This document shows, piece after piece, positions 30,401 through 64,000 of a stretch of DNA of 64,000 nt. The notes beneath the pieces were generated by a model. The model was given only the letters and a program-made list of their open reading frames with translations, had not been told where the DNA came from and searched no databases. Each line of letters begins with the position of its first letter. Position 1 is the stretch's first letter. A program made the position numbers and the translations under genes. The DNA is from Tubulanus polymorphus. Taxonomy: Eukaryota > Animalia > Nemertea. The stretch lies in the NCBI RefSeq assembly GCF_964204645.1, contig NC_134025.1:20063101-20127100 (forward strand), in the 5' to 3' direction.

Positions 30401-31772
30401 TTTGAAAAATGGTTGCCCGTCCGCTCCGAGCAATTCAAATTAATTTTATTTTCATATTAAATGGGAACGGGGTGCGCTAGCTGGAGTGTGGACGTGGAAG
30501 TTTACTAAAACACTAGTACGTTAACCGAGATATTATATTAATTACATCCCATGAAAAAGTGGTACCAACGAAATCAACCAAAAATGGAAACTATCATAAA
30601 CTTCACCCTTCAGAAATGGACGCCCTCATTTCGATAATTCTGGAGTCACCCCAATTTATTATCCGGGAAATCCGAATTTCATTGGAGATGGTGGTGAACG
30701 CTGAGGATTTATTCGAAGAATTTTCCCCGTTTGGAGTTAGTTGGGAAAATGAAGAAATAACCGATAAACGTAAGTATAAAGTAGATTTCACTTGTTATAA
30801 TTTGTATTGTTTTGGGAGCATTTTTTCGACGAGAAAAACGACTCATCTCTAATTCAATTCAATCACTTTATTATTTATTGCATTGAAACATTAAAATTTT
30901 GAGAGACGAAACTTACCTGTAAGTTGAAGTTTGACTAAAATCAAAAATGTGACTAGTTTCATAAACGTGATTAGCTACTACACTCTCGGGTTTGAAATTT
31001 TTTACGTCATTTTATGTTCTCTGAGGCGCTTTTTCAAATCACGCCCGGTTTCACCAATAATAATATATATTTTACAAAGTGGCTATTCGTACGGACCCGT
31101 ACGGATTAAATTACGTACTAGAATTAGGCCAACAGATCAGATCACACTAATGAACAAAAATTGGTTCCACAATGACCTATCAAGACTGATTCAGGTTAAC
31201 CGTTTGTTATGGAAATGGACCATTTTATCAAATCTAAATTTTGAAATACAAGTAGAAAAGAATTTATTACCTTTTTCTTTTTCTGAAGGGGATAATTTTA
31301 TAAATGTATCCGCCTTACATTGTTTCTTTGGCAAACCAATTACGGTTAACCCTGCACCTTTGGGCCTGCCTCTCTTGGGCATTCTTGGTGGTAATCGCAC
31401 TTCATTCAATTGCACGATTCCTGGAAAGATAAGGGCATCTTGCACATTTGTTGAAAAATTTGTTTATTATCAATTTACACAATTTCAATAAAACATAAAT
31501 AATAACTTACCAGTTGAAATATCATCCAGAACATTGGAGGTAGTTGGAGCTGGTGCAATTGATTCAGTTAAACCTGTAAAACAAACAATATGTACATGTT
31601 TATTAAATGAATTAATTGCTTAATGAACTAAATGCATTTGCACGTAATTTCAAAAATTTTAATCACCTTTGTCTGCTGAATCCTTGGAGGTAGTTGGAGC
31701 TGGTGCAATTGATTCAGTTAAACTTAAACCTGTAAAACAAACAATATGTACATATTTATTAAATGAATTAAT

Positions 31773-34745
31773 GGCTCCTACTAAAAGCCGACCAGCGCCG
31801 ACTAGCGCCGACCAGCGCCGACCAGCTATCAAAAGCGCCGACCAGATACGCTTACCAAAACGGATAACAAATTCTTAAATTGAAATAATAACTTTTATTT
31901 TTATCTTTTTACTTTTATCTATTTAACACGATTAACTCGATTGATCGTTTAAACTAGTGTGTCGGCATCAAAAGTCAAAAACAAGATACTTAGAGCTACA
32001 ATACATTTGCAAAGAAATACTTATTTAACTTTTTTCATTGAATTAAATAACAGAAATATACCAATATACAAATTTACATGTTAACAATTTACATTCAGGC
32101 TTATATTCACTATATTTCTCAGATCTGAAATTTACAACGGTTGATAGTCTGATAGTTTGAACTTTGTCATCAAAAACATGTTGAGCTACAATAGCAATAC
32201 TTTAACTTTTTCAGTGAATTATTAATTACAAAAATATATACAAATTTACAAGTTTACAATTTACATTAGGACTATTTCACTATTTCTCGGCGAAATTATA
32301 CACGTTAACACATATCACTGATATTTCTATTAACCTAACCTTAATTTTCGACTTTTTGAATTTTCCGATTCGCCGTTCTTTCACTTTTTACGCGTTTCCT
32401 CTGACCTGGTTTTTTTGCAATATTTCCGGTTTTAGGAATAGTCAGCAGACCATCTGTTGATGTCATTGTATTAATTGGTTTTGTTGGCCTTATCGTGGCT
32501 TTCATGAATTTCTCAAATAGTTTTTTTTTATCGTTTTCAGTTTTTTGAGTCCAAATGGCATGGCTGACAGTATAGCTTTTTAATTTTGATACGATTTCGA
32601 AGTTTCCTTGGTTGTGAATAGCTCTGCGAATATCGATATATTGTAGTTTCACCATTTTATGTAATTCCTCGATTAAGTCCGGAATCTTTAATATCTTCCA
32701 TTTGGTTGAAAGTTTTATGATACTGTTAATTGTCTCGCAATTGTTGTTGGTCCAACCGATTGAATGGACCTTTTTCACGACTGACGGAAAGAACACATAC
32801 TGCTTTAGTCGCGGTTCCAGTTTGTTGAAATAGGCTATAAACTCTGGTGCTGATTCCATTATGTCTGCCTTTGTTTCAATCATTTTTTGTTCGTATTTGA
32901 ATTCGTCATCCTGATGCAGCGCTCCACTTTTACCGAATATCGCATCGACTATTCTATCTTTAACTTTATCGTTGACACCAGTTTTGTGCAACAAATGTCT
33001 TTTTACATTTTCGATAAGATGCCGGTAACACAATATTTGATTAGCGGAGGGGAATGCCTCTTTTACCGCCTTAAGCAACGCTTTTTCTTCATCAGAACCG
33101 AAAGTCAGAGATTCACTGTAGGCGATTTCAGTCGTTGTGACTTCCGAGTCAAGCTTCCCTTTGATGTGTGCGAAGAAATGCTGATAGGTTTCGGTTTCCC
33201 CGTCCCAATGTAAAAACAGAGGGCCGATGAATATCGGGTGTTCCTGAGTTTCCCGGCGAAGTAAATGTGTATTCTTAAAAACGGTAATTGTCAAAAAACA
33301 CGCACCAACGTTATATGTCCTGTCAACACCAAGGATAGATCCAGACTGTACACAGAATGTACGAATGTCTTTAATTTGTTGGTCTGTATATAGAATAGCC
33401 ATTGGTGGTTTTCCTTTCAATGCGAACACTTCTCGTACAAAATCGTTTTCATGAAGCATATTAAACAGTTGTTGAATGTCATCGGCGACATTTTTCCTAA
33501 AACAAAGTCGGTTTGAGATTTCAAAGTTTATCTAAATGATCGTTATGACGCCACGTGATCTGTTATTCCAATGTGAGAATCAGTCAGCAGAAAAATAAAA
33601 TCTAATTAGTCAAATAATGATTTGATAGTACATATTTAAGTACAATAAATACATGTACCAACCTTTGCAAGGATATTGGAGAGTTGTCTTTCCTTTTCTT
33701 TTTCGTAGTGGTGCCATTGGAATAAAATTTCGTTAAACGTCCCGTGTGTGCTGTTAGCGCTCTCTTGCTCAGAGAATAGTCCGAAAAGAACTGTGACCCC
33801 TGTTATTTTCGCCCAGTTTATATACAATTCAGGGATGACTAATTAAAAACCAATGTAATTAGTCAATGGAATTGATATATTTATAAGTTTATTTTATGTC
33901 CATTGATCTTAAAGTCAATTGGTCAACGGGTCATTGTTTTAACAGATCAAAAGAATTACTAAATTGGTTTTTGATGACAAGCCCAGTAAAATTCAAACGG
34001 TTTAAGTAATTATATCTTAAAGTTGCGTGTGTCGAATGATTTCACACATCTAATTAGTGGATGATCACAGTTATTTTATTCCTTTCATCAGTAATTCCTT
34101 TCTTTTATTTAATTGAGAAGTGCGTTCTTGACTTCAGTTCACATGCTACTTCCCCTGGACCAATGATCAAAGCTGTTATGAACGTCCTTATTAATTTTAG
34201 CGCGTGTACGTGACGAGAGTAAAAATCTATTAGGCAAATATCATACGAGATGTATGATATACACATAAACATACATGAAAAAGAAAGAAAGATTTTAAGT
34301 TGTTTGCATTTTCTTTTATTTCAAATAACGATAGTATATGAAATCCCAGTCATATTTAATGCAAGCTTAACATGAAAAAATAAACCTGATCAATATACCA
34401 ATTTCAATTTAATTTTGCCATATGAAATTATAAATCTAAAAGTACATCAGACAGCAGAATACATTTTAACGAATATTGTCTTGGACATGAAAACTCAGTA
34501 AAAAATTAACACGAACACAATGCAATCCAAGTAAATATAACCATTTGAATCTAATTTTGCATGTAGTCATAGGTAAGACAGCAGCATACATTTTTAACGA
34601 ATTGTCTAGGAAATCGGGGCTTGGACGGCGCTTGGACGGCGCTGGTCGGCGCTTGGACGGCGCTGGTCGGCGCTAGTGGGCGCTGGTCGGCGCTAGTGGG
34701 CGCTGGTCGGCGCTAGTCGGCGCTGGTCGGCTTTTAGTAGGAGCG
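31773..34745 (-). mobile_element. Second MULE nested in the first
   Basis: TIRs GCTCCTACTAAAAGCCGACCAGCGCCGACTAGCGCC with 10-bp subterminal tandem units; 8-bp TSD GAATTAAT at 31765-31772 and 34746-34753. Confidence 0.88.
32341..33459 (-). CDS. MULE DDE transposase, 372-aa open C-terminal part (5' end damaged)
   Basis: GVDRTYNV (D), FGSDEEKAL (D), LCYRH (CxxH) and WTNNNCETIN (E). Confidence 0.8.
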   Translation of the reverse strand: MLHENDFVREVFALKGKPPMAILYTDQQIKDIRTFCVQSGSILGVDRTYNVGACFLTITVFKNTHLLRRETQEHPIFIGPLFLHWDGETETYQHFFAHIKGKLDSEVTTTEIAYSESLTFGSDEEKALLKAVKEAFPSANQILCYRHLIENVKRHLLHKTGVNDKVKDRIVDAIFGKSGALHQDDEFKYEQKMIETKADIMESAPEFIAYFNKLEPRLKQYVFFPSVVKKVHSIGWTNNNCETINSIIKLSTKWKILKIPDLIEELHKMVKLQYIDIRRAIHNQGNFEIVSKLKSYTVSHAIWTQKTENDKKKLFEKFMKATIRPTKPINTMTSTDGLLTIPKTGNIAKKPGQRKRVKSERTANRKIQKVEN

Positions 34746-34814
34746 GAATTAATTGCTGAATCTATAACTTACCTGTTTCCTTTGCAATTGATTTCATTAA
34801 TTTACAAACACTTA

Positions 34815-36058
34815 TTAGGCCAGCCGTAGGCTGAGCCTATTACTATACAAATGGAGCGAATTTAAATGACATGGTTTCCACACAAAAGGCTCTTTTGCTT
34901 GCCAAGTGAGGGCGTATTCGAACAAATCACGTATTTAAGCGTAATCCATTCTCGGAATCGTAGCGAGCAGAATTTTGAAATAGGGTCTCATAAAAATGTT
35001 TTCTGCATTTTTCACGAAAGTTAAATCGGGAAAATTTCAATTTTTATCAGCCAATCAGGAAGTTGTGTCTTCCCTGTGATTGGTTTATCTGAAAATATCA
35101 GCAGCTGTTCACGTGAATTATCGCGATTTCATTACTGGCGCTTTTGCGCATGACGTCATGTATCAACACGCGACAATACTTCCGCGTTCGCTGATTGGCC
35201 CATTTACTGGTAAAAATCCATAGAAGCCTAATGTGGTTTGTAACAAGCGCTGTGATTGGCCCGACCCGATTCTGGCATGGCTTTAGCTTAGTGGGTTCGA
35301 ATCCCTTGACGGGTGAAGATGATGGATCCTACCAATATCTATTGAAACAAATAAGTTTCCCGGTTGGGCAGCCGCGGATATCTACCGGAAGTGTTCCGGT
35401 TCGATATTTCGAGGTTTCTTTGAATTTTGGAGTGATATTGAAATCCGGTACATACCAGCGGTAGATTGTGAAAACCCATTGCATGATATTTGTATTATTT
35501 TTTATTAATCAACGAAAAGCGTCGGGGCCGCGCCAGGAGTTTTCGTGATTCAAGTAGCGCAATAGCCTACTTCTTCATGTTCGTCCACCTCAATTTTCAC
35601 TCCGCCGATCTCTGACACGGCTCTGTCCCCGTCGGCGCTGTGATTGCACTTTCGTACCACCAAAATTTTTTATTTCTATATCAGGGAGGTCTGGAGAATA
35701 AAAAAGTCAAAATTTGGATATCACATAGGCCTGATTTCATCGAATAAGTCGACCATGGTCGTTACGTTTCCGTACTTATTACCACCTAAAACCGTCTGAA
35801 CAATTTTGTCACAACCATCATTTCGTTTACAGAAATCAGGTGTTCACGTGAATCCGCGGTATCGTCTACTGTTTTACTTCCGGGTTTTATTTTAAGATTT
35901 AAAATTGTATTTCAAGATCGATTTCTATGAAATCTTTAGTTGATTTGGTGTTTGGGAGGAATTTTTATTTGCTCTACAGAAAATTAATCCTTGACAATTG
36001 CGCAAGGTTCGCGAAAAAAAGGTTTTACTATTGAGGTCGAGAGATAACCATCTAGATA
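34815..36058. mobile_element. Helitron/Helentron-like non-autonomous element (same family as 3208-3710, with ~700 bp extra internal sequence)
   Basis: Two blocks homologous to 3211-3510 and 3487-3700; ends near CTAG. Confidence 0.55.
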
Positions 36059-36074
36059 GTTCGTGTTAGTTCCA

Positions 36075-36740
36075 AAGTTTTGAAGACGCTTCAAGGTAAT
36101 GTCTTGATATTTGTTTTATACGTGTATCTACCCTAGACACATCTTCAGGCCAAAAACTGGCCCTGTCAGATTCAAGATGGCCGACTGGCAGCCATTGTTG
36201 TTCGCCAAAATCAGCCATTTTTACACATTTTTGAAGTTTTCGAGGGAAATTTTGAAGACACTTTTATCAATAACCTTGATCATTCGTATATATTTGTATC
36301 CCCCGAGGGCCCATCGGCATGAGAAAAATTGAGTCGATCGGACTCAAGATGGCCGTACTGTGACCTTTTTTGTTCCCAAAAATGTCAATTTTGGCCTGAA
36401 TTCTGAGTACTGTAGCTTTCTAATGGTGCGCCATGTTTCATTGCAATTTGTAATGGGTATTCTTTGGAAAGGGATCTTTTATATCCGAGAGGGTATATTT
36501 GACCAGGCAATTATGACGCACTTGGCAGCCATCTTGGGGTCATCAGTACTCATTCGTAGGTGGAAAAAAAGTTTTTCCACATCATAATTGATACTTAAGC
36601 ATATTTTGCTACTATAATCAATTGGAAAGTTGTAGCTCATGACATGTTCTATGATCGAGGTGAGTTTCAAGCTCATTGGTTTTTTTATGGCCACCTGGGG
36701 GCGTTGAACAATACAATAACTTAGTATTTCTATATTACAT
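36075..36740. mobile_element. Fragment of the HINE family seen at 47696-50933
   Basis: 36075-36545 matches 47790-48250; 36590-36735 is one ~150-bp satellite unit. Confidence 0.75.
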
Positions 36741-39299
36741 TCGTTCCTGCTGTCTGTGTTAACACACGATTTTACTATGTAAATGATATTGAGCAGGGAG
36801 TGTATATTGATAAATATAACCCACAGATTACATCATTTATAAAAAGCAAATCTGACAGGCTGGCCATTGTGCCCCTTGGGGCTCTTGTTGACTTTTCTTC
36901 TTGAGATGCACTACTGCTGGATTTTGGAACTGAAAATTTAAGTGAATCTGTACTACAAAATGTAGAAACTATTTCAGTCAACATAAAACAAATCTATAGT
37001 AACATACCTGTACTAGAACCCGCTTCAGCCAACAAGTCTGTATTTGGAGAAGGCGTTGAGTCTGAAGATGATGCTGGAAAAAAAATCAGGAACACATTTA
37101 AATCTTACAAATATACACACATATATAATACTGCTCAGAGATATAGTTAATAGATTTAACACTGATCAGAGATATAGTGATTACTTACCTAAAGGATCAA
37201 GGACTGTGAGCAGAAATCGTTTGCCATTTTCAACATTAAATTGTACTAACTTCATCAAGTCCAAGTGATAGCTGAAATCTCGCATACCCATCTCTGAAAT
37301 GGCTGAAGCAATTTTCTGAACAACTTGAAATGTCTTCCTGTATTTTTCATCACCCGACAGAACCCGAGAAGATTGTGGCTCCGTTCTGGTGACATCAATG
37401 AAGTTCTCATTCCAAGTCCTGCCAGAAAACAATAATACCACTAAATCTAGACGCAACACTTTTGATTTTCGCGTTGATCGATTCTAACCGATTATTCGTT
37501 GAATTCATCAAGTGGGCATGCTCACTTTTCAATCCTTCCACCTACTCGGTTCGAATATTGTTCCAATTTTTATCGAAGTACTGAGTGACAGTTCTCAAGC
37601 CTAACTTGTAGCACAGCATAATTTGCATTGTAGTCATCTTCCGATTTTGAATATGTCAATTTCGTTACGATTTCCAACACAGCATTTCTTTGATCTGAAC
37701 TTATTTTCATTTTTTCACAGGTAATTTCACGACGAAAAGAGCGTAGCGTGTGAAACAAACATATAAGCGCGTGTGAATTTTCAAATTCTTCTTTTAATAC
37801 TTCTCGTTCTGTCATGTCCTTATCTGTTACAACGACATTAGTCGACTTCCACTTTGGATTGTTCTTTTTGAAAAAGCGAGCCATCATCTGAATCAATTCT
37901 TTTGTCTCATCCAAAGCGATCCATAATCCAACAATTTCCGACTCTCCATTACCATCTATGGCCAGCAATACAAATAACGGCATTCGTAAATTGTTAAGTT
38001 TATGCGTTGCATCGATGAGCAAAACATCTGGGAATGCATCAAACACTTTTTGCGTTGATGGTGACTGGTAAAATATCCCGTGTAAAACATTGTCCGCATC
38101 AACCAGCACCTCAACAACTGAACCTAGAAAATGAAAAATACAAGTCCCTAAGATCATAGCCTTTAGGTAGATACACACAATTTGAATATCTAAGTAAAAA
38201 ATTTAGGTCAATGACACATACCTGGTGTTTTCTTCATTTCATTGATGAGTAACTCAAAATCATTTCCGTCGGTCATTTTACTTGAATGTGCCAAATTGTG
38301 AAGATCTTTGAGGCGCACAATTTTCCCAGTCGCGTTAATGACATGCTGTTGCAGGATTTTCTTGTTCGATCTCATTTCGAGCATCGATTTTACCATTTCT
38401 CGGTCCGAGCCATCTAGTCTCCTGACCTGCGGGAGATGATCATATGTAACCTGAAATTTAGAAAACAAAAACAGTTAAAGCGTTTTCAAAACTTCCCAAA
38501 TTAACTGTATTCTGTCTATGGACGGATGAAGTGAACGCAATAGACTAAAGTCCCAAGTGGGCTAAAAATGAACATAACATATCACATAATTCATGTACAT
38601 AATTACCTTGCTGATCTCATGGTTGTGTTCTTCTGACATAGCTGTTACCACTAAAGAATTTCCATCAGTAGATGTCCGCAACTTGACAAAAAATGTACAA
38701 TCTTGTTTGAGGGTCCTGAAAGAGGAAATAATACAACGATAACTTTTCATTCATACAGTACTGCGGCAAATCCAAAGAAACAATGTTTGTTCGTTACTGC
38801 TGCACTGTGCCATGTGACTGTGTTACTACAGATGGCGCGGAAGTCCGTCGGTTCCGTACAAATAGCCTCCGGAGTAATCCGTACGGGTCCGTACGAATAG
38901 CTTCCGGAGTAATCCGTACGGGTCCGTACGAATAGCCACTTTGTTTATTTTATTACATACTTTACAAGGTATTTTGTATACACCAATGTTCAAAGGTTCC
39001 GTTTTGCAGGAATTGTGAGTTAAGTTATGACTAAGTTTATTATTGTAAGTGAAAACGAGCTGTTTGTTAAGGAGATGAAGGGGGGTTTATGATTTCTCCA
39101 AAAAAGGAACAAAAGGTACGACGATGGGCTGTTTCTGAGGGCGTGAAACTCGAGAATTACAAAAATGGGTCCCAAGGGGTTTGAAAAAGAGCTTTATTCA
39201 AAAGGTCGTTAGGATAAGCTAACTTATTAATTATGAATGCACACATCTAAAAATGGGATTTTTCCGATCAACTTCCAATTCAAATGTGAAGTTCAACGA

Positions 39300-40720
39300 G
39301 GGGTAAAAGGAGCTACAATATCAATATCAAAGTCGCAAGGAATAAGCGTAAGAACGTCATCAACATATCGTACATGGCATACATGTGAGCATTAAAGTCA
39401 CCCGTAATTAGTACATTAAAATCATTTTCAATCTTTAATAATTCTAACTCTATTTCACTTATTGCTCAATTCGAATAATAATCTAAACAACTTATAAATG
39501 ATACTGATTCCACCTGAACTCCTTTTCGAAATTTTTTCCTGTTTTTAAAATGTGACACATACGAACCGGGTAAATCATTGGTTAGATTCCCATCAACATC
39601 GTCGAGGTGGGTTTCAGTTAAACATACAAAATCATAGCTACTAATGAAATCACTAAATTCAGGGACACCAAGTTTACTATCAATACCGCAAATATTGAGA
39701 CTTACAAATTTAATCTCTTTAATCGACTGTGATTCACCTACGCCTACTTCATTTTCTATATTAAAATTAAGGTTATCAGTATCCAAATTGGTTCTTTCAT
39801 GATTTACAACAGGGACAACATTTTCATTTACTTCATCATATACATCCAAACTGCTCCTTTCGTTATTTACATCAAACACTCTTCTTTCATTATCTACATC
39901 AAACTCTCTTTCATTATTTAGACCAAACTCTCTTCTTTCATTATTTACATCAAACTCTATTCTTTCATTATTTACAACAGATTCGCTTATTTCATTAATT
40001 AAATCAAACCTGTTATTTGTACTATTTACATCAGTATTGTTGTCAAAAAGAGTAAAACTATCCACAAAGTCTAGCGCATAGCATCGACCCTTTACAAAAA
40101 TCACCGTCCGATCGACAAACTCCACACGTATAACACCTTCCACTGCATCCTAGCTGCTGTCCATGGCAACACGTTCCCGGCGATCATGGATGACAAGTTT
40201 GTCTCTGGCGAAAAACGTGTGTTTCCCGCTGGCTTTCGCAGCCCTGAGTTCCGGTAACAGTTCGCGTCTACGTGCGGCCCACTCGTCTGGAACTTGATCG
40301 CTCAAGCCTAATGAAGTACCGGCTAGATTCCTCGCTACCGAACGCACTAACTCTCTGTCCTTAAAATATTCGAATTTCGCCACTATCGCACGCGGTTTTT
40401 TCTGGTCGCTCTTTCTTTTTACAAGACGGTGGACGCGCGCAAACTCAAAAGCCTCGACTGATTCTTTCGCTAGCTTAAGTGCAAAAATCTCGCACCATTT
40501 TTTCTGCATCTCTACCATCAGTCTCTCCAAGGCCGTAGAAGATAAGATTGTCCCGCATACTACGCCACTGTTGGTCGAGTAAGAGTTCGTGACCCGATTT
40601 GACGATGGTCTCCAGGTTCGCAACAATTTGTTCGAGTTCTTTTACTCTGTTCTTCTCTGTTCAGCACCTTATTTTCACTTTTTAATTGTAGCACGTCCTG
40701 ATGGCAGAACTCCAGAGATT
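39300..40720 (-). mobile_element. Non-LTR retrotransposon 5' part: ORF1 and ORF2 apurinic endonuclease start
   Basis: ORF1 motifs WRSMRDNLIFYGL and PRAIVAKFEYFKDRELV...LSDQVP; APE motifs FVSLNICG, DFVCLTETHL and LITGDFNA; short tandem repeats at ~39840-39980. Confidence 0.8.
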
Positions 40721-41059
40721 GTTTCACTTCACTCATGTCTTTCTGTAGATCGTCTAAATGTTCTAATTTCCTGAGTTGAGATAGAATCGCATATATATAT
40801 TCCGCTGTCCTCGCGCGATGTCGTTTTCTCTGGTATCTTCTGTTCCAAAATTTGTTGAAGCTGCTTGTCCGAGATCGGTATTAGCTGCGGCTGGCGATTA
40901 TTGTTCGTTTTGATGTTCCACTGGTCTTCAGTTGCTTCCTCGGTGGTGAAGTGCTCTGCCTGCCTGTCTTTTTCTTCAGATCTCACAGGCACAGATTTTG
41001 TAGTTAAAAGTAAAAAAGAAAGGAATAAGTGAAGTTTCAATTATTTAAAAAATTATCTG

Positions 41060-42380
41060 GCAGCAAGGGAGGGAGCAAAATCAAAAAATCGAAAGCGTCC
41101 ACTGACTTTACTGCTGGGTCTGGGCGCCAGCTCACGTAATGAGGTAACTGATGGTTCGTCCTGTCTGCGAACAGGTCCACTTACTTGGAAAGAACCCAGA
41201 ACAAGATCGATCTGCCTGAAAACACTCCATTTCAGACACCAATTGCTGTCGTCCCTCAGATTCCGGGAGAGTCAATCTGCTTCCTGGTTGTCCTTCCCTT
41301 GGAGATACTCTGCCGACAACACGATTTGTTTGTCCAAACAATAGTCCCACAGAATCTTTGTCCCTTCGATCAGAGGGACTGAACGGGGATTCCCCATTTT
41401 GTTTACCAGCGTGACAGCTGTCTGGTTGTCCAATTTTAAATGAATGTGTTTTCTGGACACATCTGCGGTAAATGCCCTCACTGCAAGCTCCACTGCCTTC
41501 AACTCAAGGACATTTATGTGTCTGGAGCTTTCCTTGAGAGTCAAAAGACCCAGTTCCGCCCCAACCGCGGTGAGAGGCATCTGTGATTATTACTAAGTCT
41601 GGACTTGGAGACAGAATTGACTTCCCGTGCCAGTCAGAGAGGCGTTCGATCCACCAACGGAGCTCTGTTAGGCATTCCGCTGTAAATGTGAGTTTGTTGT
41701 CGTAACTCCAGTTTCTCACTCCGATCCCTAACACCCTTTGAAGGTGCCGAAACTGTAACAGAGCAGGGAGAACTGCTCTCCCTGTAGCCAATTTTGAAAT
41801 GGAGGTAAGTGATGAACTTGTTTAGGGTCTTCATATTGAAAATAGGGTGGAACCCCCCGTCTTTCTTCGGTCTGACAAATAGCTGCCCCAAGAACTCTCC
41901 TTTGGTCCGGTTTGCCTCCGTTATAGCCCCTTTTTGGGCCATTTACTTGACTTCCGAATCGAGCACCACAGTCTCCCCCTGTTGGAACCGAGGGTTTGCC
42001 GGTCTGTGGAGTTGGGTCGGGGTCTCCAGAAATTCTATCAAATGTCCCGACACAGCCTGCAGTATATAATGGTCTTAGGTTATTTTTTTTCAGTTCCCAA
42101 AAAATACTGTAACCTTCCCGCTTGGGGAAGGTCCTTCCTCTCGCTCGTCTAGATTCAGAGCTTTCAATTGAGGGTAGATGAACGGTAGCAGGTCCCCCAA
42201 AGACAAACCTGAACTAAACCTCGCCCCCTGAAAGTGGGGTTGGTATAGGTGCTTCAACCTCTTGTCACTGAAAACTGGCAGCCCGTCCCCTCAAAGGCTG
42301 GTCTGGAGGAGGGCCCGGCGATATAGGGTCTTGAAACCCCGACGCGACGAGCTTTTACTCGGTTCCTTGGCATTGCCAGG
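41060..42380 (-). mobile_element. DIRS-type (tyrosine recombinase) retrotransposon RT/RNase H fragment
   Basis: LFVRPKKDGGFHPIFNMKTLN, LRWW, IITDASHRGWG, HINVLELKAV, LDNQTAV, LQGKDNQEAD and YVSWRPDP..VDAF; multiple frameshifts. Confidence 0.85.
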
Positions 42381-42382
42381 GT

Positions 42383-50304: not shown

Positions 50305-50309
50305 ATTAT

Positions 50310-51056: not shown

Positions 51057-51081
51057 GTTGTTGTTGTTGTTGTTGTTGTTG

Positions 51082-51152
<71 letters not shown>
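51057..51152. repeat. (GTT)n microsatellite
   Basis: About 32 GTT units with one interruption. Confidence 0.98.
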
Positions 51153-51153
<1 letters not shown>

Positions 51154-51239
51154 CCTGGACTGAAGGAACTAGATCAGTGACTGATTCTTCTAAATCTTTT
51201 TACACCTCATTTTTGTCAATTTGATCAGTAGCCGTCGCT

Positions 51240-52022
51240 TAACCACAATTCGAACACGGCTTTATTAAATGAGGGACTAACCCTTCGGTTTTGTAGCAAC
51301 TACTTAACTGGCAGAATGTTTCTTTTTAATTGCACATTTATCCGATAACGCACTGTTCAATTGTTGTACACTGTTTAATAACGCAACAAATTCATGAGCT
51401 CCACATGCACAGATAATTCCTCTGAATGGTAATAGTGGCTGTAGTCGGAAATATATGTATAGTGTAGATATGTTCAGGATTGTCATGGTTAGTGCTCGAT
51501 ATCTGCACCAAAATATCACCGGGTTTTATCTCCCGTCTTATTATCAGTCCAGTTAACAATAAATACATTCCATTTATTTCAAGGCCAGAGTAATTAATAC
51601 CTGTAAGCTATTGCTTGGATCCAATAAAGCATTCTATCGGGCGATGTCTTGAATGCTAACATCTTGGCACTAGGATCGTACAGGCCACGATTAATCGATT
51701 CAAATTCAGCATTCGCCGATTTACCCTTGGACTTCTCTGGCTTAGCTGGTATTTTGGACTCGTACAACAACTTCAAGTTGGCCATCACACTTTTCGTTTA
51801 AGGGTGTTTCATCGGATTTAGTATCGAGAAACCCAGCCAGTTGTTCTGAAATATCAGACTGATTGGAGTCCACTGGTATCGTACCTGTAAATTTAGCATT
51901 ACAAACACTATCACATTCGTAGTGCTAGCACTAAGAAAACTCGAATCACTATCGCAGTCAGAGAATGAATAGTCTGCCCATGAATCAACAACGCTGGAAG
52001 TACCATTTACTGGCGCTGCCAT
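51240..52022 (-). mobile_element. LINE ORF1 N-terminal fragment related to 45448-46023
   Basis: FKTSPDRMLYWIQAIAYRY resembles QKTSADRLLRWIGALLSRYY, and HEFVALLNSV resembles IEFPALLQLV. Confidence 0.55.
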
Positions 52023-52604
52023 CTTTGAAACACTCGAGTAGGCCGACTTGAAAATATATAGACTACGATACCGTCATGAATGTCTCTTTTTTGAGTTCAG
52101 GCACAATTCTAATATGTTTAAAAATTACAGTCTAGCGGAGACGGTAACTTCATTCATATATTCATGAAAAAAGGTAAAACAATAGACTGTAATTCAAAAA
52201 TTACCGCCTCAATGCGCCACTTATCACATGACACTTAATAAACTGAAACAAGTGAATTTTTTGACAACAGGAATTTTGTCTGGTACAACACTGTTCTGAA
52301 CATATATATACGTGTACTGTCCTGAACAACACGACTGGTATCATCATTTAATTAGTCCCTGTTTCAATTCGTATCACAGAATTTCTCTAAAACTCAGGGA
52401 TGTGATAGTTAACATCCATAGGTATCTGCACAAGCCTAATTGCCTTCATATCTATCCAAATTTAACAGAAAAATAGTTGATGTAATATCTGAATTGCTTA
52501 GAATTTCCATCAACAAAGAATCAAAGGATTATGATGTCCAACAGATAGTACAGTTTTACACAATCTACCTAACTAAAAATGAACATGATAACATATTAAG
52601 TTGT

Positions 52605-53819
52605 TACCTTGCTCTTCAGGGTTGTGTTGTTCTGACATAGCTGTTACCACTAAAGAATTTCCATCAATAGATGTCCGCAACTTTACAAAATATGAACAAT
52701 CTTGTTTGAGGGTCCTGAAAGAGAAAATAACATAACATTCATTCAGTATATATTCAGTGGCAAATCTGAAGAAATCATTTGTGTTCTTTTTTTGTTAGGA
52801 TCAACTGTGTTGATCCTTATAGAATGGTCCTGAGTAACTTTCTGTTAGCTCTTGGTGGCACAAATTGTAACCACTGGATATACGCAGCTGATTTTTTGTC
52901 ATTAGGTGGGAAATAGATGGTGGAATTGATATGGTTTCGTCCATCAGCTCTTAGCTGTTTGGAAGTACTGGGAGATAATGTGAAAAGTTTCAATACATTT
53001 TTTCCCATTCTACTAATTGATGCTTGACCTAGTTTTATGCCCTTCAGAAGGGCATCACTTGGATATACCTCTAGAAAGGCTTTCCCAGTGATATCATCAT
53101 AGAGAACTGTTCTACCATGTACTTCTGACCCATAGGGAAAACCCATTACTATGTATATCAACTAACATGAACATGCTTACTATACAGTGCACTATGATGA
53201 TATCATCTTTATCGGCTGTTCATACGTAATTGCAAATCAAAAAGAACAAATCGATTTCTGTGCTCAAAACTCAAATGGACTCAGTTGATTCTACTGGACC
53301 CATGATCCTTTATTGTAAATTTTGACTACAGTACGTGATGGCTAAAAACTGTAACGTGAAACTGTTTGTTGTGTTACTTAAGTAGTTAGGCTGATACATA
53401 TCATTATTTCACATATTGCACACTTTTACAACTAACCTCTTATTGGGACAATTGCCATGAATTAGCAAGTCGTTCAGTAAGGGATTAAAATGTCTTTTAG
53501 GAGCCCGTTTTTGAAGAGCAACTATCGACCGGGAGCTTCAAATATATATCTTTACGAAATTTGATGTTTCATAGTGCTCGATTGCTTCTTTAATGTCTTC
53601 ATTACTTGAAAAACCTGCGGTTTTTACTTACAACGTTGCCACCTCAGCCGCCATTTTCGTTCATTACTGCTGCACTGTGCCATGTGACTGTGTATCTGCA
53701 TATGGCACGGTAGTCCATACAGTTCCTAGTTTGGTATGAAAAGCCTCCAGAATAATCTCTACAGGTGTATGAATAGCCTCCAGATTTAACCGTACGGATC
53801 CGTAAGAATAGCCACTTTG
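52605..53819 (-). mobile_element. Diverged partial copy of the MULE at 31075-38943 (5' TIR and first exon)
   Basis: 52605-52725 matches 38603-38725; 53663-53819 matches 38793-38943, ending GAATAGCCACTTTG. Confidence 0.75.
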
Positions 53820-54099
53820 ATAAAAGTAATCAAAAGAACTAGATTAAAGTGGTCGACCTACCCCATATTTTAATTCACATGTCACTCGTGTCCATGTGTA
53901 ATCATGACTCAAGCGATTCACACTATAGGAAGATATTGTTTATATAAATTGTTTATAAGGGAAAATTTCTGTGTCGCCATGACTGTGTACGACAAATGCC
54001 TTACAAATTTAGATTGAGCATCTTCCTAAAGGCCAAGGTAATTCATAAATTTTGATAAGTTCGAAAACCAGTCAGTGCGTTAGTAGCGCGTGAACTGCA

Positions 54100-54945
54100 C
54101 ATTCCATGACCAATGGTATGATGCTCAAAACACATCCCTGTTTAACGCCAACAGTTGAAATTATGGGTTCCGAACAAAAAACCGTTACTTTTGAAAGAGT
54201 ACCATGCTTCAGAATACATGTCACGAAGTAAGGGTAACAGGTTTCCACCAATATTTATCAGCAGTTCATAGACAAATGCGTTACGAGGAATCGAAGCTTC
54301 TGGATATCTTTAGTCTTTAAATCGTCCATCAATGGGTTGATCTTTGCGTCGCTTTTGGCTAATGTCTCCAACTATACAGTTTCCAACTACTATGGAACAA
54401 ATCATTATTTGATTTTTCAAGCCGATCGATAAGATTGTTTTTAATATTTCGGATTCTGGAAATTGCACAGCCTTATCAGTTAATCGTTCATTTCATGTAG
54501 CACTGAAACGAGGGCATCATCAACACTGCGACTGGGTGTATCTGTACACTTACTTGCATCGGACAATTTTATCCGTGCCGAGGTGTCAAGTTTGCACATG
54601 CATGGACGGAGAGATTGATTTTGGACAGTCAACATATTTTGCGGTGTAGTATAGAAAGTCCGAATCGATGTCCGTACAATTCAGTGATACATTCGAATTT
54701 CCTACCGGTCGAGTGGAAGGCTGGTAGTTCTGAACAGTGGTAATGAATCCATTCTTGATCAAAAAATTTGCTGCATCGTTTATGTAAGCAAAGCTCTAGG
54801 GGAGATCATTTGAATAACCTTCAGTTACCTCTTTGCATCATCTTTTAAAATGTTTTATGGTAAAGTATTCTTTTCTCCCAAACTTAAGTTAATTTTAGCG
54901 CAGCGATGATGAGAACATGACGTCTATAGGCGTTGCCATCTTCAA
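54100..54945 (-). mobile_element. Highly degraded second viroplasmin-PHD ORF1
   Basis: The minus strand reads CKEVTEGYSN...SFAYINDAANFL and QEWIHYHCSELPAF..TGRKFECI. Confidence 0.5.
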
Positions 54946-57305
54946 TCTCAGAAAACTCTTCAAGTATGCCGGTCATCTAGCGCCAACAACTGACAAAGTC
55001 ATAAATAGCTCGTTCATAGCTCAAAAAGTCCTTTGGCATGGTACATTTTGTATATTTAAATATAGGGAAAGACACCATTTTCTCGTTTGTAAAAATACAA
55101 ATCTCTAACCATAATCTTGGACAGAAAGAAGCTGGTTCCGCAGTGGCGAAATATAGATGCAAGCACTGTTTTCTCACACCGGTGACGAGGTTCACTTTCA
55201 ATTCTCTTGATTGTGGTTAGATGAAATCAGAGGAAGACATCTCTTTTAACATCGTTTATTGTTAATTTTGATAATTATTATAACCCAGATATAGGTATCT
55301 TGTCGTTGACCTCGAAGGATATGGATATTCTTATCCCCAGGTTATACTAAACATCGTCAGGAAATCAGAATATAGTTTTGAGTAAATAATATAATGATTG
55401 TTAAGTTGAACTAAGAAAGTTCTGCAGAATAGCGTCTATTGAAACTTGGTAAGAGGACCCGCTAATTGAAAGATTAACTATCCTTAAAGATTAACTATTG
55501 TAGATGTCTTAGAAAATTAAAAAGATTCTCCTTGGCAAAAAAAATAACTTACAGCTCTCGGTTTTTGTGCACTATCCTCCATTTCTAATCCCACAAGTTC
55601 AAGTTTCAAGTTTGTTTATTCATTATAATCACATGACATGATCGTCAATGAACAGCGGATTAGAAGAAAACAATATAATACATATATACAATACTAGGAT
55701 TACAAAAATATTTACAGGAAAGAGTGCATAGGACATAGCGTACTGTACAATATAAGTCAAGCATAAAATTAAACATAATATTCAAATCCCGATTGGATAT
55801 ACTTTCCCAAATTTACCAATTCTGATTGACTACCTATATCATTAAAAATTCTATTTATATCATTTACATCACCAATTTCCAAATCAAATTTCGTCCTGAG
55901 ACAGTCGAATTTCCTACACGATAAGATGAAGTGCTGCTCGTCTTCCACACAGTTACATATATCACAAAGTCTGTTTTCTCTACTCAATCCCAGGTGTCTG
56001 CCTTTTTCTATCATCAGTCGATGGGATGAGGTACGTAGTTTGGCAATTGCACTCCTAATATTAAAATTCTTTACAACCAATAAGTAGTTTTCTAGTTGGT
56101 AGGACTGTTTAATCGTATTATAAAAAGATAATTTGTTATGACTATGAGAGCCGCTGCGCTGAGAAACTATTCCAGAAGTTGCTTTTAAGAATACCTGGTA
56201 ACAATTCTCAGAACAAGGACATATCAGGATCCCTGTGGTTTCTATCACTCAGCCTTACGAGTAATTGAGGTCAAGCGACTACTGCATTCAAGAGTGAATA
56301 ATATACCATCAACTGGCCATTCATTAAAGGATATAAAATTCCAATTTTTATAATTTTACAAAATCCTTTCTTGGATTTTTAGTTTCATTTTGGGAATAAT
56401 CATGTCATGTGGCAAATTCAATCTGATTGATTTTGTACATCTATTAACTCCTCAGAGTGTGAGCATATATAATCTGGAATCATCTCATGAGTCGAGTGGT
56501 GTTGTTTTGCTTGAAACACCATCTAAATATAATCTTTTAACTTGGAAATTGGTTTTGACACTTCATAATGTAAACACTGACTTCAGCATCCAGCAAAAAT
56601 ATTCACTCTTGAATGCAACAAGACTTCAAAACTGAATTTTCATTGCTTATTACTTCATTTTCTTGGATTAAGTGTGGAAAAGTTTTGCTCTTTATTCACT
56701 CTTGCCTGTAACCATAGCAACAAGCAGCTGGGGTCCAGCGAGTCAGCGATGCTCATGGTGAGTTTGACCACTTAAAGCTGTCAGTATCAATTAAATTGTT
56801 GTTGATACTGGCTCTTTGAGAGTGAAATGCCGCGGTCATAACCACTGGGATAGACTTTAGTTGGGGTGCTGGAACATGTTAATATTTGACTACAAACAAC
56901 GTGAACCATATGGGTTATTCTTAATTAGCAATTTACATGGGCCTCAATGCCTAATACAGGACCTGGTCATTCTTGATTTAGCCAAGTAAGTACGAATAGA
57001 CCAATAAAAGTTTGGGTCTATATTTGCTAACAGTGATAAGATTAATTGCGAAATTACGCTGACGTTACACTTGCTTGTCAATTGAATACAATTTGATTGT
57101 AATTAAAATTTGATTTTGAAGTATACCCTAGATCCTATTGTTGAATTGGCCATTTGATCTATTGCTGATTAACTAGCGCGTCCCTTTGAAAAAGGTATCG
57201 ACAAAAATTCTATTTTTTCATAATCGCTTGCCTAGTTTCCCGTGATAGCACTTTTTGGTCCAAAAGTTTATTTCCCTTCTTTTGTGTTTAACATTGTATG
57301 ATTAG

Positions 57306-58050
57306 TTACATGAGATTGTTTTTCTTATGGATCATTGTTTTTATTTTCTTCATGCTTTCGGCATGCTGCATGCTGGCTGGGGTTTTTGGGTTTTTCTTTC
57401 CATAAAAGCATATGAGCGGAATGGTCAAATTGTATACGATAGGTGCATGAACAACATATAGCTGCGTGAAACCAGGTGGAACCATGGCAAAGCAACCATC
57501 CATCATCCATTGTCTTGCAGCTGACAAAAAACTGACATGCTCATCAGTTCCAAAATCAGAATTCTCAAATTTGATTGAGGGCCATCATCATAAAACAGAT
57601 ATTCCTGCCAGTTGGGACCATCAGTATTTTAACCACAGGCCATCTTCAGGAATCACTAACTTTTGCAGTGTATTTGACTGAGGTGGAAATTCATGGATTC
57701 TGTTGTTTCGGATTGTCCGCTTTATAGCATTGTGCTTCTATAGTAAATGCATTTGGTTATTGAAGTGCTGTTGCAAGAATATTTTCAGGGTGGTCATTGC
57801 TATTCTGTGTATTTGTTATGATAGTGTATCTTGCTTTTGTGACAGACACTTCGATACTCGACGGGTTGTGGTTGTATTCTCTAGTTATCTCTGGTTCATT
57901 TTATTCGCATTCCACCCTTGCATACATTTGATGTCCTCTTAACGCAGCGCCAGACAATGAAATTCTGACACCCTTTTGATAGCGTACATATATCCATCAA
58001 GACAGCTTCTCTCTGCCCTTGTTGGATTGTATTATCTCCATCATGTTTCT
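57306..58050 (-). mobile_element. FLYWCH-MULE transposase fragment
   Basis: LDGYMYAIKR...IVWRCVKR (FLYWCH-like) and WMMDGCFAMVPPGFTQLYVVH (MULE first D). Confidence 0.65.
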
Positions 58051-58995
58051 GTTGTTTTGCTGTGGTATGAGTATCTTTTGTTACAATAGTGTCTTTACCA
58101 TCACTCGCTGTTTGAATAGTCGAGTAACAATATCGTCTATCCTGAGAGTAACGTAGTCAATTAAGGGCTATCATTAGTTTCATCCGAGACCAACAAAGGG
58201 GAAAGTCTCGAAAGTAGTGTCCGAAGAATTCAATGAATATGACGAGAATGCGATGATGGTGCTTTTGGTAATTATTTGGAGGATCACATCAAGCATTTCT
58301 TTATACCACCATTCTCGTTATAACGTCTAAATAAGCCAGGTCCCGATGGTGGCGTTATAACAAGGTTTGACTGTGATTCAATTATTTGATTGTTGCTGTA
58401 CCACCACACCACACAACCATATAATAAAACAGGAACAACACACATGTCAAACAACTTAAACATTATATCATTTGGCAACATAAGCACTCTTCCCTTCTGT
58501 AAGACAGCGTACATAGCTTCCATGCCTCTATCATAATTATCTTTCTTTGCAACTACTAAACTCATTCCATGACAAAGTTACCCCTAAGTATTTATTATCC
58601 TCTACAATATCTAGTTCATTTTTGGCCGTTGTAAATTGAGGTAAATTTTTCAAATTTGCTTAAGAGCGTATAAATACTAGCACTTTTGTCTTTGCACAGT
58701 TAATAGCTAGCTTATTAAGTAGACAATAGTCGTGAAGTAGATGGATATTCTTTTGCAATTCTTCCTCACTTTCCACAAAATGATGGTGTCATCAGCATAT
58801 AACAACATTAAAAGCTAGAGTAAGCTTCTATGCCCATCATTATGCGTTTTAGAGTATATCGAAGAAATAAAGCGGAGAGAGCCACCATTATTTGCTTTAA
58901 AGAATTCCTCTAAATCATTAAGGAAAAGAGCGAAAAGAATTGCAGATGGACTTTCGCCTTGTTTGACTCCACCTCCAAGTGAAAGTATGCTGTAT

Positions 58996-59139: not shown

Positions 59140-60849
59140 ATATTCTACCCTGGAATGATACACTTGATTTGGTCTGCTTATACATATCCACATTAAGCCC
59201 CTTCAATACCAACCATTGTCGAGGCATTATAACCTTATCATTTCATCCACAATCACAAACCTTAGATTGCTACTCATTTTCATTTTAGATTAGCCTTCAC
59301 TTAGAAATACAACTTTTAAATCAACAATTTCACCACGTGCTCACTGTTATCGTTCATGTGTGCAGGTGCATGTTTTTGACATCATCTCTCTTGATGCACC
59401 AGATTCCAGTCATTCACAAAACATTTCTAAAGTATTTGATCCTTTTGGCAGATTTTTTGAATTAATGAAATCTTAACTATTGTATGCTGTTGTTGCCAGC
59501 ATAAATGACATGATAAACATATATTAGTTGGTGAACTATGAAGCCATGATTCAAGTGAACAAATGATAATGATTTCATCAATTATATAAATGCCACAACG
59601 TACTGAGAGCACACACGTGCTTGTGTTTAGCACAAAGATACCGTTCAAAATGGCGCCAACTGCAAATTAAAGGTGAACTCCATAACCCCAGTGAAAACTA
59701 AAAAATGACTTATTTTGGGATAATCTGCAATCTTCCTCCATCAGTCACATCACGGGTTGATACCATGGGCATTCCATTTAGATCACAAAAAGTACAATTC
59801 AATCGGCATGTGCCCTTTAATCACAACCTAATCATAATGTAATATTCCATAAAAACTGTTTCTTGTACGCTCACCCTACACTTTACAGGGTACCGGTACC
59901 TCAATGCATCAGACACAGACACCCCTGGAGCATGCAAATACCTGCTCCTAACCCCATTGTCCACATCTAGATCCTTCGTCTAAAATATCTGCAAATACAT
60001 CAATGACATACCAGTTATCAAAACCACCGTTGCCAAACTCATTATGTTATTCACTACCACCAGAGCTATATACATCTAACAGACATGCTAGGAACATTCC
60101 TGGTCCATTGAATCTTATTGCTCGTACAGCGTTCACGGAGTGGGAAAGAAGTATGAAAAGACCTTTAGGTCACACAATCACGAGGCCGACAAAAAAGATA
60201 ACTCAGAACATCACAAAAAAACGTTAAAAATTCCGAGCCCCGGCCTTGACTAAATACTATCATCTGGCAATGATTCATTTCACGATAACGGTCAAGAGCG
60301 GTAAACCAAAAAACGGATCTCCAACAGTAAGCCCAAACAGTCACACTACAACACCTCCTGCTCCAGACCCCGTGATTGTGGGACCTATAGTTACATATCT
60401 CAAATTCATTGATGTAGGATATCAGGAGAATGAGAAGTTCATAAGTGGTCGATGGGGATTATTACACGGAGCGAGCTCCAAAAATTATTCCTTTCGGTGT
60501 CATATAATTGACATCGAAGGGTGAAATGTTGCTCACTCAACAATTTGGCCTAAAGCACATAACCTGCAAATTCTATCCTTAGCTTTTTCCATCCATCAGC
60601 CTCGATTCTTAGATGGTGAGCGCTTTTTCATAACCATGCAGAAAACTTGCCGTTTGTAAAAAAAATTATATATGAGAGATATCTTTCGGGAGAGAAATTA
60701 TACTTGAAAATTATACTTTTTAAAAGTATCTGAACATTTTATTTCAGAGCTCGCTACACGCTTTCGACCTCGCAGTGGCACGCTTCTATCGTAAATTTGC
60801 CAGTATTAAGACCAAAATCATATATATATATCTTGCTCAGCATAGACTG

Positions 60850-61560
60850 ATTTGGGACAGCGCTCCCAAACATTTCCATTGAAAAGCTCATTCGCATTTT
60901 GAGTCATTCCATGTGTATACTTTGCTAACAAATTCGAACTTGCTAAATCATTATATATAGAAGGCAATAATTCGACAATAGCATCAGAAGTCCGTTTCTG
61001 TGTTTATACCCAGTTGGATCGAGATTGTATTTGTACCAGAAATCTGACCCAACTGGGCAATACTGGGTGCTGCGGTTTTTCATCTGTCGATGCGATGTAA
61101 TACAGGCTAGCCTTCACTGCTCTGCATTTCATTTATTGAGGAATAGTTCTCTCTGAGTGCTAACTCATAACAGTTTTGCAAAAGGTCGATTTTTGCATCT
61201 GTTAATCCACCTTCCCCTGATAAGGGTTTTCCATCGCTCAGTTTTTTCCCCCGCCATGATGCTCTTATTTCCGCAACCGGGTACCGCAACATTTTTGCAC
61301 ATGACCAAAGCATTTCAAGATTTTTGATATCTAAATACCGGCCATATGGCTTTAGTTTTAATAAGTCAGAATAGGTGGAACTGTCACCATCTACCAATAT
61401 ATGTACATAAGGCAAACCATGATTAACTTCGGAATGCAAAAACATTCTGTGCATGCCTACGGACTCCATGGCACCGGCACTACCTTTGTGATTCACTTTA
61501 CATTGGTGAGTTTGTAGCCACATTCGATACCTAACACAGTTCACGACAAAAACCATAGAT
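60850..61560 (-). mobile_element. DNA transposase fragment (Kolobok-type / Mutator-like transposase domain)
   Basis: HKGSAGAMESVG, LVDGDSSTY and GKKLSDGKPLSGEGGLTDAKIDLLQNCYELALREN; frameshifted. Confidence 0.7.
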
Positions 61561-62322
61561 TTGAAGTAGAAAGTGTTATAAATCATTGGACTGATAATGT
61601 ATCTATATTCTACCTTTTTCAATGTAACAGGTGGTGTGTGTATCTCATTTTTCAAAAATTTAAGTTTTTGAACATATTTCTGGCATAGTACCGCCTTAAC
61701 ACGGGAGCAAATTCATAATAACAAACGCACCACGGGTAACATCATAGCGCACGGTTCAAATTTCGGGGAATTATGCTTGCGCGCTGATGCATTACTGAAA
61801 CATTATATCAACCTGTAGATCATTCGACCCATAAACTATGATGATTGTGGCAATTCCTCCGTAAGTTTATAATAGAAAAAAGCAACAGTTATGACAGTGA
61901 CGCAGTGATTTAAAATACTACCAAAGGCTATTTATTACATATAGATATTATAATATGACGCATCCATACGTGCCACGTAGAACGATTTGCGTAACGCACA
62001 CAGGAACCTTGCTTTATGAACTCGCGGGTGTCCTTGGAGCACTGATGCCAATGACCATGAAAACTGCCAAAAACTAAACTTCGAATCCGGACTCACACAT
62101 CTAGGTGCGGCGACGATACATTCCACTCATAATAAAATGTCGACTTCTACCAGTGACGACCTGCTACACGTTAAAAACATGGCTACTATACTAAAAACAA
62201 AAGATGGATTGCTCCAAAAAAAATCTAACTGCCATCAACAACGTAATAATGTAATAGTAAAAAATGGGGTGAATCCTAATAATGCCTATGGGTGATAAGT
62301 ATAGTACATGTGCTAGACAGGA

Positions 62323-64000
62323 CACTCCCCTCTGAAAAGGAGTTTACGAGTTTTCATCAGAAACGTACTTACAGTATGCAATGTTCAACTTCTACCAACG
62401 ATTTATTCTGGTTTTTTGTCTTCATAAGTATCGCTTTCGATCAATCGCAATTTTTGCACTGGTCGCTTTAAAACACCATTTGCTGTCTTAATTGCGACGG
62501 AACGGACCAAGTCATCACGACCTGGATAGACTTCAACTACAGGTCCCATTTTCCATTCAGTCTTTTTCACGTTATCCTCAGCGATCAATACAATATCGCC
62601 AACTTTCAAGTTCTGCTGAACTACAGTCCTCTTCTTGAATCTATTTAGTTCAGCCAAATATTCTCGATACCATCTGGTCCAAAATGACTTTTCGAGTCTT
62701 TGGCGGTACAGCCACCTTTTACCAGGATTAGTACTCTTGGACACAGCATCTACATCAGGCACAGCTTGTAGATTTCGTCCGATCAGGAAGTGAGCTGGAG
62801 TGAGTGGTAGTAGATTATTCTTTGCACTTGAAAAACTAGAAATTGGTCTGGAATTGAGTTGACATTCGATACCCGTTCGAATGACTTAAAAAACTCATCA
62901 GCCGTCATGTCCTCTAATAGTTCCAGATGGACAGCTCTGATGGTCATACAAATGAATATCAATATGTAGGATTTACTGGTTTTATTTTTACCAGTCTTGA
63001 ACTACAATGGTCCAGCGTAATCACATCCAACATGTGTGAATGGAGATGCATCAACAACTCGCTCAACCGGCAGTTGACCCATTTTTTGTCCCAGCTTTTT
63101 GGGCTCCCTACATTCACACTGGTGTATTATTTGCATGGTTTTCTTTCACACCTTTGAGTAACCATTACTTTAACCTCAGTGTTGCAAGAGTTTGTGTCGG
63201 GCCAGTATGTCCATACAGCCGATGATACCATAAAACTAAATTCTCAACCATTCTTTCACCAGACGGCAAAATAACAGGATGCTTCTGTTCATCAGGCAGT
63301 AGAGAATTATTCAAACGACCACCAACACATATGATTTCATGCTTCTCATCCCACACTGGATCAAGTGACTTTAGACGACTGAACTTGGATACAGGAAGGC
63401 CAGACGTTAAACATCTTATTTCCTCAGGAAAGTATTTTTTCTGGATATAACTAATCCACCATAATTCTTCCTTCTTACGATCAGTCAGAACCAGTGGATC
63501 TTCTTGACCATCAGTTCTTCCCCCATGGGTTTTCTGCACCTTTTTTCGCCAACGTCGAACTATACACATCCCTCGTAGAAACGTGTTGTATGACTTCAAT
63601 TTGCCAATACAACTCTCCAGGAAATCTGCATTTTTCGCAGATACTAACGATACGTTAGCTTTTACTTGTTTCGCTTTTTTCATAGCCGTCTCCTTGGCGG
63701 TCTTGCTAGGATGGTCAGGCTTTGGCCAGTGATCTTCAGACATCTACAAAAGCTCAGGACCATTCCACCAGATAGACGACTGTATCAATTCAGTTGCCGA
63801 GCAACCACGCGAACACAAATCCGCTGGATTACATTTTCCAGGGACATGACAAATGTCTTTCACCAGGCCTTTCACCAGGCCTTTTGGACACCCTGTTACT
63901 CACAAAAGTCTTCCAGGTATATGGTGGTTGACTTATCCATTCGAGAGTAACTTTCGAATCAGTCCAACTGGTCGAATCAGTCCAACGGGTCGATGATTCA
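62323..64000 (-). mobile_element. BEL/Pao LTR retrotransposon pol/integrase remnant
   Basis: NPADLCSR, GGRLNNS...KHPVILP and FWTRWYREYL...LKVGDIVLI...VYPGRDDLVRSV...RPVQKL; polypurine tract AGAGGGGAG followed by the TG start of the 3' LTR at 62323. Confidence 0.88.

Follow-up and report, generated by a model that had tools for sequence, protein, structure and literature searches.

The window analysed here, a stretch of 64,000 nucleotides of the Tubulanus polymorphus genome, contains the minus-strand gene LOC141909757 and, from the start of this gene to the right-hand end, an array of transposon relics (Table 1). The coding region of LOC141909757 was recovered as 19 tblastn pieces over ~14 kb, running from the ATG at 30400 to 16564, and its exon 1, which adjoins the array, is a 100% match. 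An earlier note had called it a U-box/TPR gene; Pfam matched TPR in its product, whereas the U-box has no Pfam match and a cadherin-like domain is found instead. We rejected an extra upstream coding exon within the array, because the tunicate, mussel and crinoid homologs share the start methionine of LOC141909757. In its coding exon 2, a 195-bp tandem duplication (97%) at 29386-29770 was observed, across which the RefSeq protein aligns with a gap. A plus-strand gene for an FMN-dependent dehydrogenase (hydroxyacid oxidase-like), with five exons that have Pfam matches, lies at 7823-12027. Rfam gave no match in the 64-kb window.

Table 1. Positions, strands and supporting evidence of the features in and beside the array (window coordinates).
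Feature	Position	Strand	Evidence and remarks
Host gene LOC141909757	16564..30400	-	Cadherin-like beta-sandwich and TPR, 1160 aa; ATG at 30400; left boundary of array
Gap between host ATG and first repeat, candidate divergent promoter	30401..30520		~100 bp; single-copy contig 29741-30522; CpG o/e
Penelope-like element, 3' part	30500..31074	-	GIY-YIG second half and ORF end; motif by eye; left end approximate
Outer MULE (ZSWIM type)	31075..38943	-	PF21056 3.4e-38, MULE 3.6e-18; TIRs; 9-bp target duplication
Nested MULE	31773..34745	-	396-aa open frame; MULE 1.1e-6; TIRs; 8-9 bp target duplication
Non-coding repeats (two) of very high copy number within outer MULE	34815..36748		Depth 1e4-1e5 vs ~35 single-copy; orientation unreadable
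Penelope-like element, RT end (YVDD) and GIY-YIG first half	38944..39370	-	Motifs by eye; no Pfam match
LINE ORF1 and endonuclease	39371..40900	-	tblastn to esterase LINE endonuclease 2.8e-4; 3' side cut off, abuts Penelope RT
DIRS-like RT/RNase H fragment	41030..42300	-	Motifs by eye
Viroplasmin (Cauli_VI)-PHD ORF1 fragment	42383..43440	-	Cauli_VI 3.1e-15, PHD 3.1e-4
LINE with esterase ORF1 and endonuclease, no RT	43480..46035	-	GDSL ~0.01; Exo_endo_phos 0.0014
BEL/Pao gag	48436..49970	-	DUF1759 4.1e-6; flanked by two LTR-like repeats, 93% identical
ORF1-like fragment, related to esterase LINE ORF1	50951..52073	-	tblastn 6.1e-5
Second copy of outer MULE's end	52604..53825	-	blastn 83% and 78%, same orientation; split by repeat 52790-53650
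LINE RT core	54075..54930	-	Motif by eye; tblastn E 1.0-1.3
One LINE ORF2, split by insertions	55596..58990	-	RT core 58287-58990, 3' end 55596-56248
FLYWCH-MULE fragment	57306..58160	-	FLYWCH 0.0015; MULE motif by eye
LINE ORF2 C-terminal zinc knuckle (LINE 3' end)	60480..60710	-	tblastn 0.02; profile 0.95; weak
Mutator-like transposase fragment ("Kolobok-like" in the earlier note)	60850..61712	-	PF20700 3.6e-14
BEL/Pao pol, 3' part	62323..64000	-	DUF5641 6.9e-28; runs beyond window end

All 16 coding transposon relics between 30.5 and 64 kb lie on the minus strand, and we confirmed that the one-strand bias of the array is real. The bias had been proposed from a list of 14 elements, all of them minus; this held, and the inventory itself changed, in that a Penelope-like element had been missed, LINE pieces were merged and a LINE 3' end was added. 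Both strands were scanned alike with Pfam, using stop-to-stop ORFs of at least 45 aa in 30450-64000 (156 plus, 142 minus). None of the 156 plus-strand ORFs matched a transposon family, the best plus-strand match of any kind being OAF_C (E = 0.001). On the minus strand, seven of the 142 ORFs, from six elements, matched transposon-type families at E<1e-3 (MULE, 1.1e-6; ZSWIM/MULE, 3.4e-38; Cauli_VI, 3.1e-15; PHD, 3.1e-4; DUF1759, 4.1e-6; Mutator PF20700, 3.6e-14; DUF5641, 6.9e-28), and two had non-transposon matches at this level (DUF5607 and a poly-N ORF). Among ORFs of at least 120 aa, 17 are minus and one is plus, the latter an antisense overlap of a MULE exon. Weak plus-strand relics had been a concern of the earlier note; when the unassigned gaps were read through with stops replaced by X, so as to catch broken plus-strand relics, no family appeared in 24 plus-strand frames. 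With a LINE RT protein and a five-relative profile as queries, the noteworthy matches in the array were all minus, and the sole plus-strand trace in the region, a tblastn match of the LINE RT at 54566-54700 (E = 0.11), had no counterpart in the profile search.

Twelve of the relics are supported by search tools: the two nested MULEs, the second copy of the outer MULE's end, the FLYWCH element, the PF20700 transposase, BEL gag, BEL pol, the viroplasmin-PHD ORF1, the esterase LINE, the related ORF1 fragment, the LINE at 39371-40900 and the LINE split between 58990 and 55596. The other four, namely the DIRS fragment, the RT core at 54075-54330, the LINE 3' end at 60480-60710 and the Penelope-like element, were recognised by motif or by a weak score. 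Six or more transposon groups are represented among the relics, and the single strand is common to DNA transposons, LINEs, Penelope, DIRS and BEL. With boundaries set by hand, 66% of the region consists of oriented relics, 19% of high-copy repeats with unreadable orientation and 15% of unassigned sequence, so that ~85% is repeat-derived. No host Pfam family was found in the ORFs of at least 45 aa in 30450-64000, a scan that shorter exons could escape, and this agrees with the earlier statement that no host gene lies upstream of the gene start.

Several minor features were observed outside the 16 relics. Nearly open minus-strand frames occur at 47000-47700, 52820-53161, 54930-55220 and 56250-56630, three of them in multi-copy repeats; they have no Pfam match where scanned, the frame at 52820-53161 has no real match in the Atlas (score 0.76), and an EnSpm-like motif is visible by eye at 54930-55220. 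The single-copy segment 59600-60480 has a strong C-over-G skew and two plus-strand ORFs (91 and 98 aa) one stop apart, with no credible homolog, and is the only spot at which a plus-strand relic might have escaped recognition. The two matches of the plus-strand ORF 60228-60521, both to tandem-repeat proteins, were treated as noise.

At the left end of the array, the order of events can be read from a nest of three elements. The outer MULE interrupts the GIY-YIG motif of an element that we take, from motifs read by eye, to be Penelope-like (30500-31074 and 38944-39370) and whose RT end lies at about 39250-39370. The 9-bp target duplication of this MULE matches at eight of nine bases and repeats codons at the break in the Penelope-like element. 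Contigs of three runs (X1, X2 and X3) join 31059 to 38946, with a depth in X1 of 243 against ~35 for single-copy sequence, and we read this joint as probably representing other genomic copies of the Penelope-like element without the MULE. From the split GIY-YIG motif, the target duplications and these contigs, we deduced that the nest was inserted in place, first the Penelope-like element, then the outer MULE and then the nested one. We also rejected the idea that the whole array is one giant retrocopy of the Penelope type, for which the Terminon is the model, as the TIRs and target duplications of the MULEs speak against it. The repeats at 34815-36748 within the outer MULE have further copies at 3204-3677, 12656-12792, 47696-48450 and 50305-50850. 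One of these high-copy non-coding repeats (36028-36748, 47696-48450 and 50305-50850) has a 150-bp tandem core and a summed depth above 1e5; its three array copies have one common orientation, and the copy at 12656-12792 is inverted.

To the right of the nest, the assignments vary in firmness. The fragment at 41030-42300 has no Pfam or PDB match, and we presume from motifs read by eye that it is DIRS-like; the viroplasmin-PHD ORF (42383-43440) is one that we take to be a LINE ORF1. PDB searches with the LINE pieces gave no match, and a homolog search with the N-terminus of the esterase-LINE ORF1 gave nothing. The fragment formerly listed as an ORF1 at 54100 reads instead, weakly (E about 1), as a LINE RT core. 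The "LINE RT" placed at 55596 is indeed LINE sequence, and is not a separate RT element: it is collinear with the RT core at 58287-58990, the two pieces of one ORF2 giving tblastn values of 1.5e-20 and 7.5e-4 (RVT_1, 2.5e-4). The repeat that splits the second MULE copy has a bin depth of 3341. Contigs of run X1, which may be the sample from which the assembly was made, cover 40714-43098, 43100-45975, 53006-55605 and the greater part of 59086-62112; their depth there is that of single-copy sequence and they show hardly any differences or none, so the junctions in those spans are present in reads. Four of the seven LINE-type pieces (39371-46035 and 50951-52073) keep the 5' part, ORF1 with or without the endonuclease, and lack the RT and the 3' end; LINEs are usually truncated the other way, at the 5' end. 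A series of nested insertions, with one large deletion afterwards, would account for this 5'-retaining chain.

How might a single strand have come to carry all of these relics? We consider it probable that the array is a uni-strand piRNA source locus, whose plus strand would give a long transcript to be processed into antisense piRNAs. Its architecture fits such a cluster with respect to strand, diversity, repeat density and the finding of no host gene. We propose that a plus-strand Pol II precursor would start at or near the LOC141909757 promoter and that new elements would insert in either orientation. Antisense copies would be retained because their piRNAs silence their own family, sense copies would be lost through termination or mis-splicing of the precursor, and deletions would later trim the relics. 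That sense copies bring termination and splice signals has been proposed for flam-like loci (PMC10643416). The strong one-sided bias points to selection, since new insertions of six fly transposons show no overall strand bias in genes (PMC10018349). The likelihood of 16 out of 16 is 2e-5 if 50% of copies are antisense, 0.0003-0.003 at 60-70% and 0.03-0.19 at 80-90% (0.028 at 80%); flamenco is 79% antisense (PMC10495008). PIWI genes have been reported in nemerteans, and piRNAs of 25-29 nt in another nemertean (PMC11114477). In flies, two of six sequence-predicted candidates had small-RNA data, and both were uni-strand (PMC10643416).

Uni-strand clusters are not new as a class, being known in slugs, planarians, flies and mosquitoes. 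The nearest cases appear to be the slug and planarian clusters rather than flamenco. In the top cluster of the slug Arion vulgaris, piRNAs come from one strand and packed transposon fragments lie on the opposite one; in planarians, the majority of clusters are uni-strand (PMC11615739). Together with Deroceras laeve (PMC12506671), these are spiralian loci in which, as would hold here, dense fragments on one strand are antisense to a transcript of the opposite strand; they are defined by mapped piRNAs, whereas the present array is known from its sequence layout. With flamenco and flam-like loci, the array shares a gene-poor series of broken transposons, most of which lie antisense to a single inferred precursor, and possibly a discrete 5' promoter (PMC10643416, PMC10495008). 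However, in flam-like loci it is Gypsy LTR elements that drive the bias, which serves follicle cells (PMC10643416), whereas the bias here is common to DNA transposons, LINEs, Penelope, DIRS and BEL. The array's Pfam matches include no Gypsy-type domain, BEL being its only LTR content, and the label "flamenco-like" given earlier is thus too narrow. Mollusc clusters of Lymnaea and Crassostrea are similarly mixed, with Kolobok, hAT and BEL among their contents, but the account of them stresses young Gypsy elements and, in the part consulted, gives no cluster orientation figures (PMC6128900).

Where would the precursor begin? In mosquito core clusters (10.1101/2022.08.22.504762) and mammalian piC-DoGs (PMC11615739), a host promoter likewise would supply the precursor, with antisense capture of mobile sequence, but these lie downstream of a same-strand gene, whereas the array lies upstream of a gene facing away. 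A read-through cluster was excluded, as the adjacent LOC141909757 is on the minus strand and no co-oriented gene lies directly upstream; the nearest plus-strand gene, FMN_dh at 7.8-12 kb, is on the far side of LOC141909757. Because there is no plus-strand gene just upstream to read through from, we infer a start at or near the host promoter, and a divergent start near 30.45 kb would be the simplest source of a plus-strand transcript. More specifically, and tentatively, the precursor may be a divergent transcript of the promoter of this conserved gene, starting within ~100 bp of the ATG, with all transposon classes antisense to it; we regard this as possible, if somewhat doubtful. The CpG o/e of 1.22 at 30050-30520, around exon 1, against 0.70 in the LOC141909757 gene body, is as expected of a promoter, with the proviso that several relics are also high; individual elements of the array differ in CpG o/e (0.52-1.36), which does not discriminate between the rival readings.

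If the divergent-precursor reading is true, transcription upstream of a promoter would have led to a piRNA locus, by a route that differs from the dedicated promoter of flamenco, from the cluster-cluster bidirectional pairs of the mouse (PMC11615739) and from read-through in mosquitoes and piC-DoGs. No cluster sharing a head-to-head promoter with a coding gene was found among titles and the beginnings of abstracts; one may still be reported, and the cluster tables of PMC11615739 and PMC12506671 may hold divergent-promoter cases. If confirmed, the array would be a piRNA source locus in Nemertea, for which no describing paper was found among titles and abstracts or in passages of PMC11114477, and it would show that strand bias alone can locate piRNA loci in a phylum for which small-RNA data hardly exist. 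Whether a cluster can arise through divergent transcription at a host promoter could then be tested directly at this locus.

Independent signals of plus-strand transcription are weak. The earlier note had suggested that a plus-strand GTAAGT donor at 30770 could mark a first intron. This hexamer, at 30771, is the reverse of codons at the apparent end of the Penelope-like ORF, and its bin has a depth of 153 against ~40, about four times single-copy; GTAAGT occurs six times on the plus and 11 times on the minus strand of the region. Because it sits within the Penelope-like element, the first-intron reading is without support. AATAAA occurs 16 times on the plus and 39 times on the minus strand of the array, the most lopsided count among 22 A-rich A/T hexamers, but after composition control the plus-strand deficit is not significant (P 0.11-0.15 by simulation; Fisher 0.055), and as composition explains much of it, we treat it as a hint only. 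Contigs of X5, presumably an RNA run, cover next to none of the stretch, matching only short pieces of it at 85-95% identity, one host exon among them, and are uninformative on expression either way.

An alternative that needs no piRNA function is that the array is a very long plus-strand first intron or lncRNA, from which sense insertions were removed because they disturbed splicing or termination. The head-to-head geometry with the host gene would suit it, as would the antisense bias of mammalian intronic LINE and LTR elements (PMC3088655); moreover, short exons would escape the 45-aa ORF scan, and the window ends inside the array. However, no plus-strand exon was found in ORFs of at least 45 aa, and the candidate first-exon peptide at 30616-30768 has no Atlas match, which is a weak test, and overlaps a repeat. 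The neighbouring gene is compact for its 19 coding pieces, and fly intronic bias is not significant (PMC10018349). If introns are assumed to be 60-70% antisense, 16 out of 16 has a likelihood of 0.003 or less even at 70%. We consider this explanation unlikely.

The piRNA-source reading must also be weighed against chance: in an ordinary graveyard of transposons, a run on one strand could arise at random and be picked out by scanning many windows. For this locus, the two-sided probability is 2x0.5^16 = 3e-5 for 16 elements, or 5e-4 with the 12 tool-supported ones only. The ~1e-4 given in the earlier note for 14 elements overstates the surprise at the level of a scan, because 20,000 readable relics (an assumed number) would by chance give 4.9 runs of at least 12, 1.2 of at least 14 and 0.3 of at least 16; for runs of 16, 0.08-0.8 are expected among an assumed 5,000-50,000 relics. 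Very many windows were indeed scanned. As an upstream control, positions 1-7000 hold three relics only, two minus and one plus (the plus by eye), in a scan of 150 of 152 ORFs of at least 56 aa, a length cut higher than the 45 aa used for the array; thus two of three upstream relics are also minus, and this sequence outside the array seems to carry both orientations. Chance is nevertheless disfavoured, since the run occupies a single block without genes, beginning at a promoter, and the two elements added to the earlier list are likewise minus, and we judge it quite improbable.

Most improbable is that co-orientation dates from arrival, through an insertion preference set by replication or transcription direction, such as the preference of human L1 for one replication strand (cited in PMC10018349), or through template switching that fused retroelement RNAs, as the five co-oriented retroelement pieces abutting at 38944-46035, where a LINE endonuclease passes directly into the Penelope RT, might suggest: DNA transposons with TIRs and target duplications were inserted in place with the same bias, the six fly transposons mentioned above lack an overall insertion strand bias (PMC10018349), and nested insertion plus one deletion accounts for the retroelement chain.

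Two further observations concern the window at large. The upstream relics at 49-2441 and 2880-4750 comprise a minus-strand element of the DUF3987 type and pieces of Merlin/IS1595 that are oppositely oriented, the N-terminus being plus (by eye) and the DDE end minus (1.6e-8). In comparisons of the plus strand with contigs, which are post hoc and unpolarised and in which a few repeats predominate, T-for-G differences number 37 against 14 A-for-C in 44100-64000 (X1) and 35 against 27 in 28400-48300, and T-for-C differences 101 against 73 and 78 against 76 in the same two intervals, an asymmetry that could reflect transcription-linked mutation.
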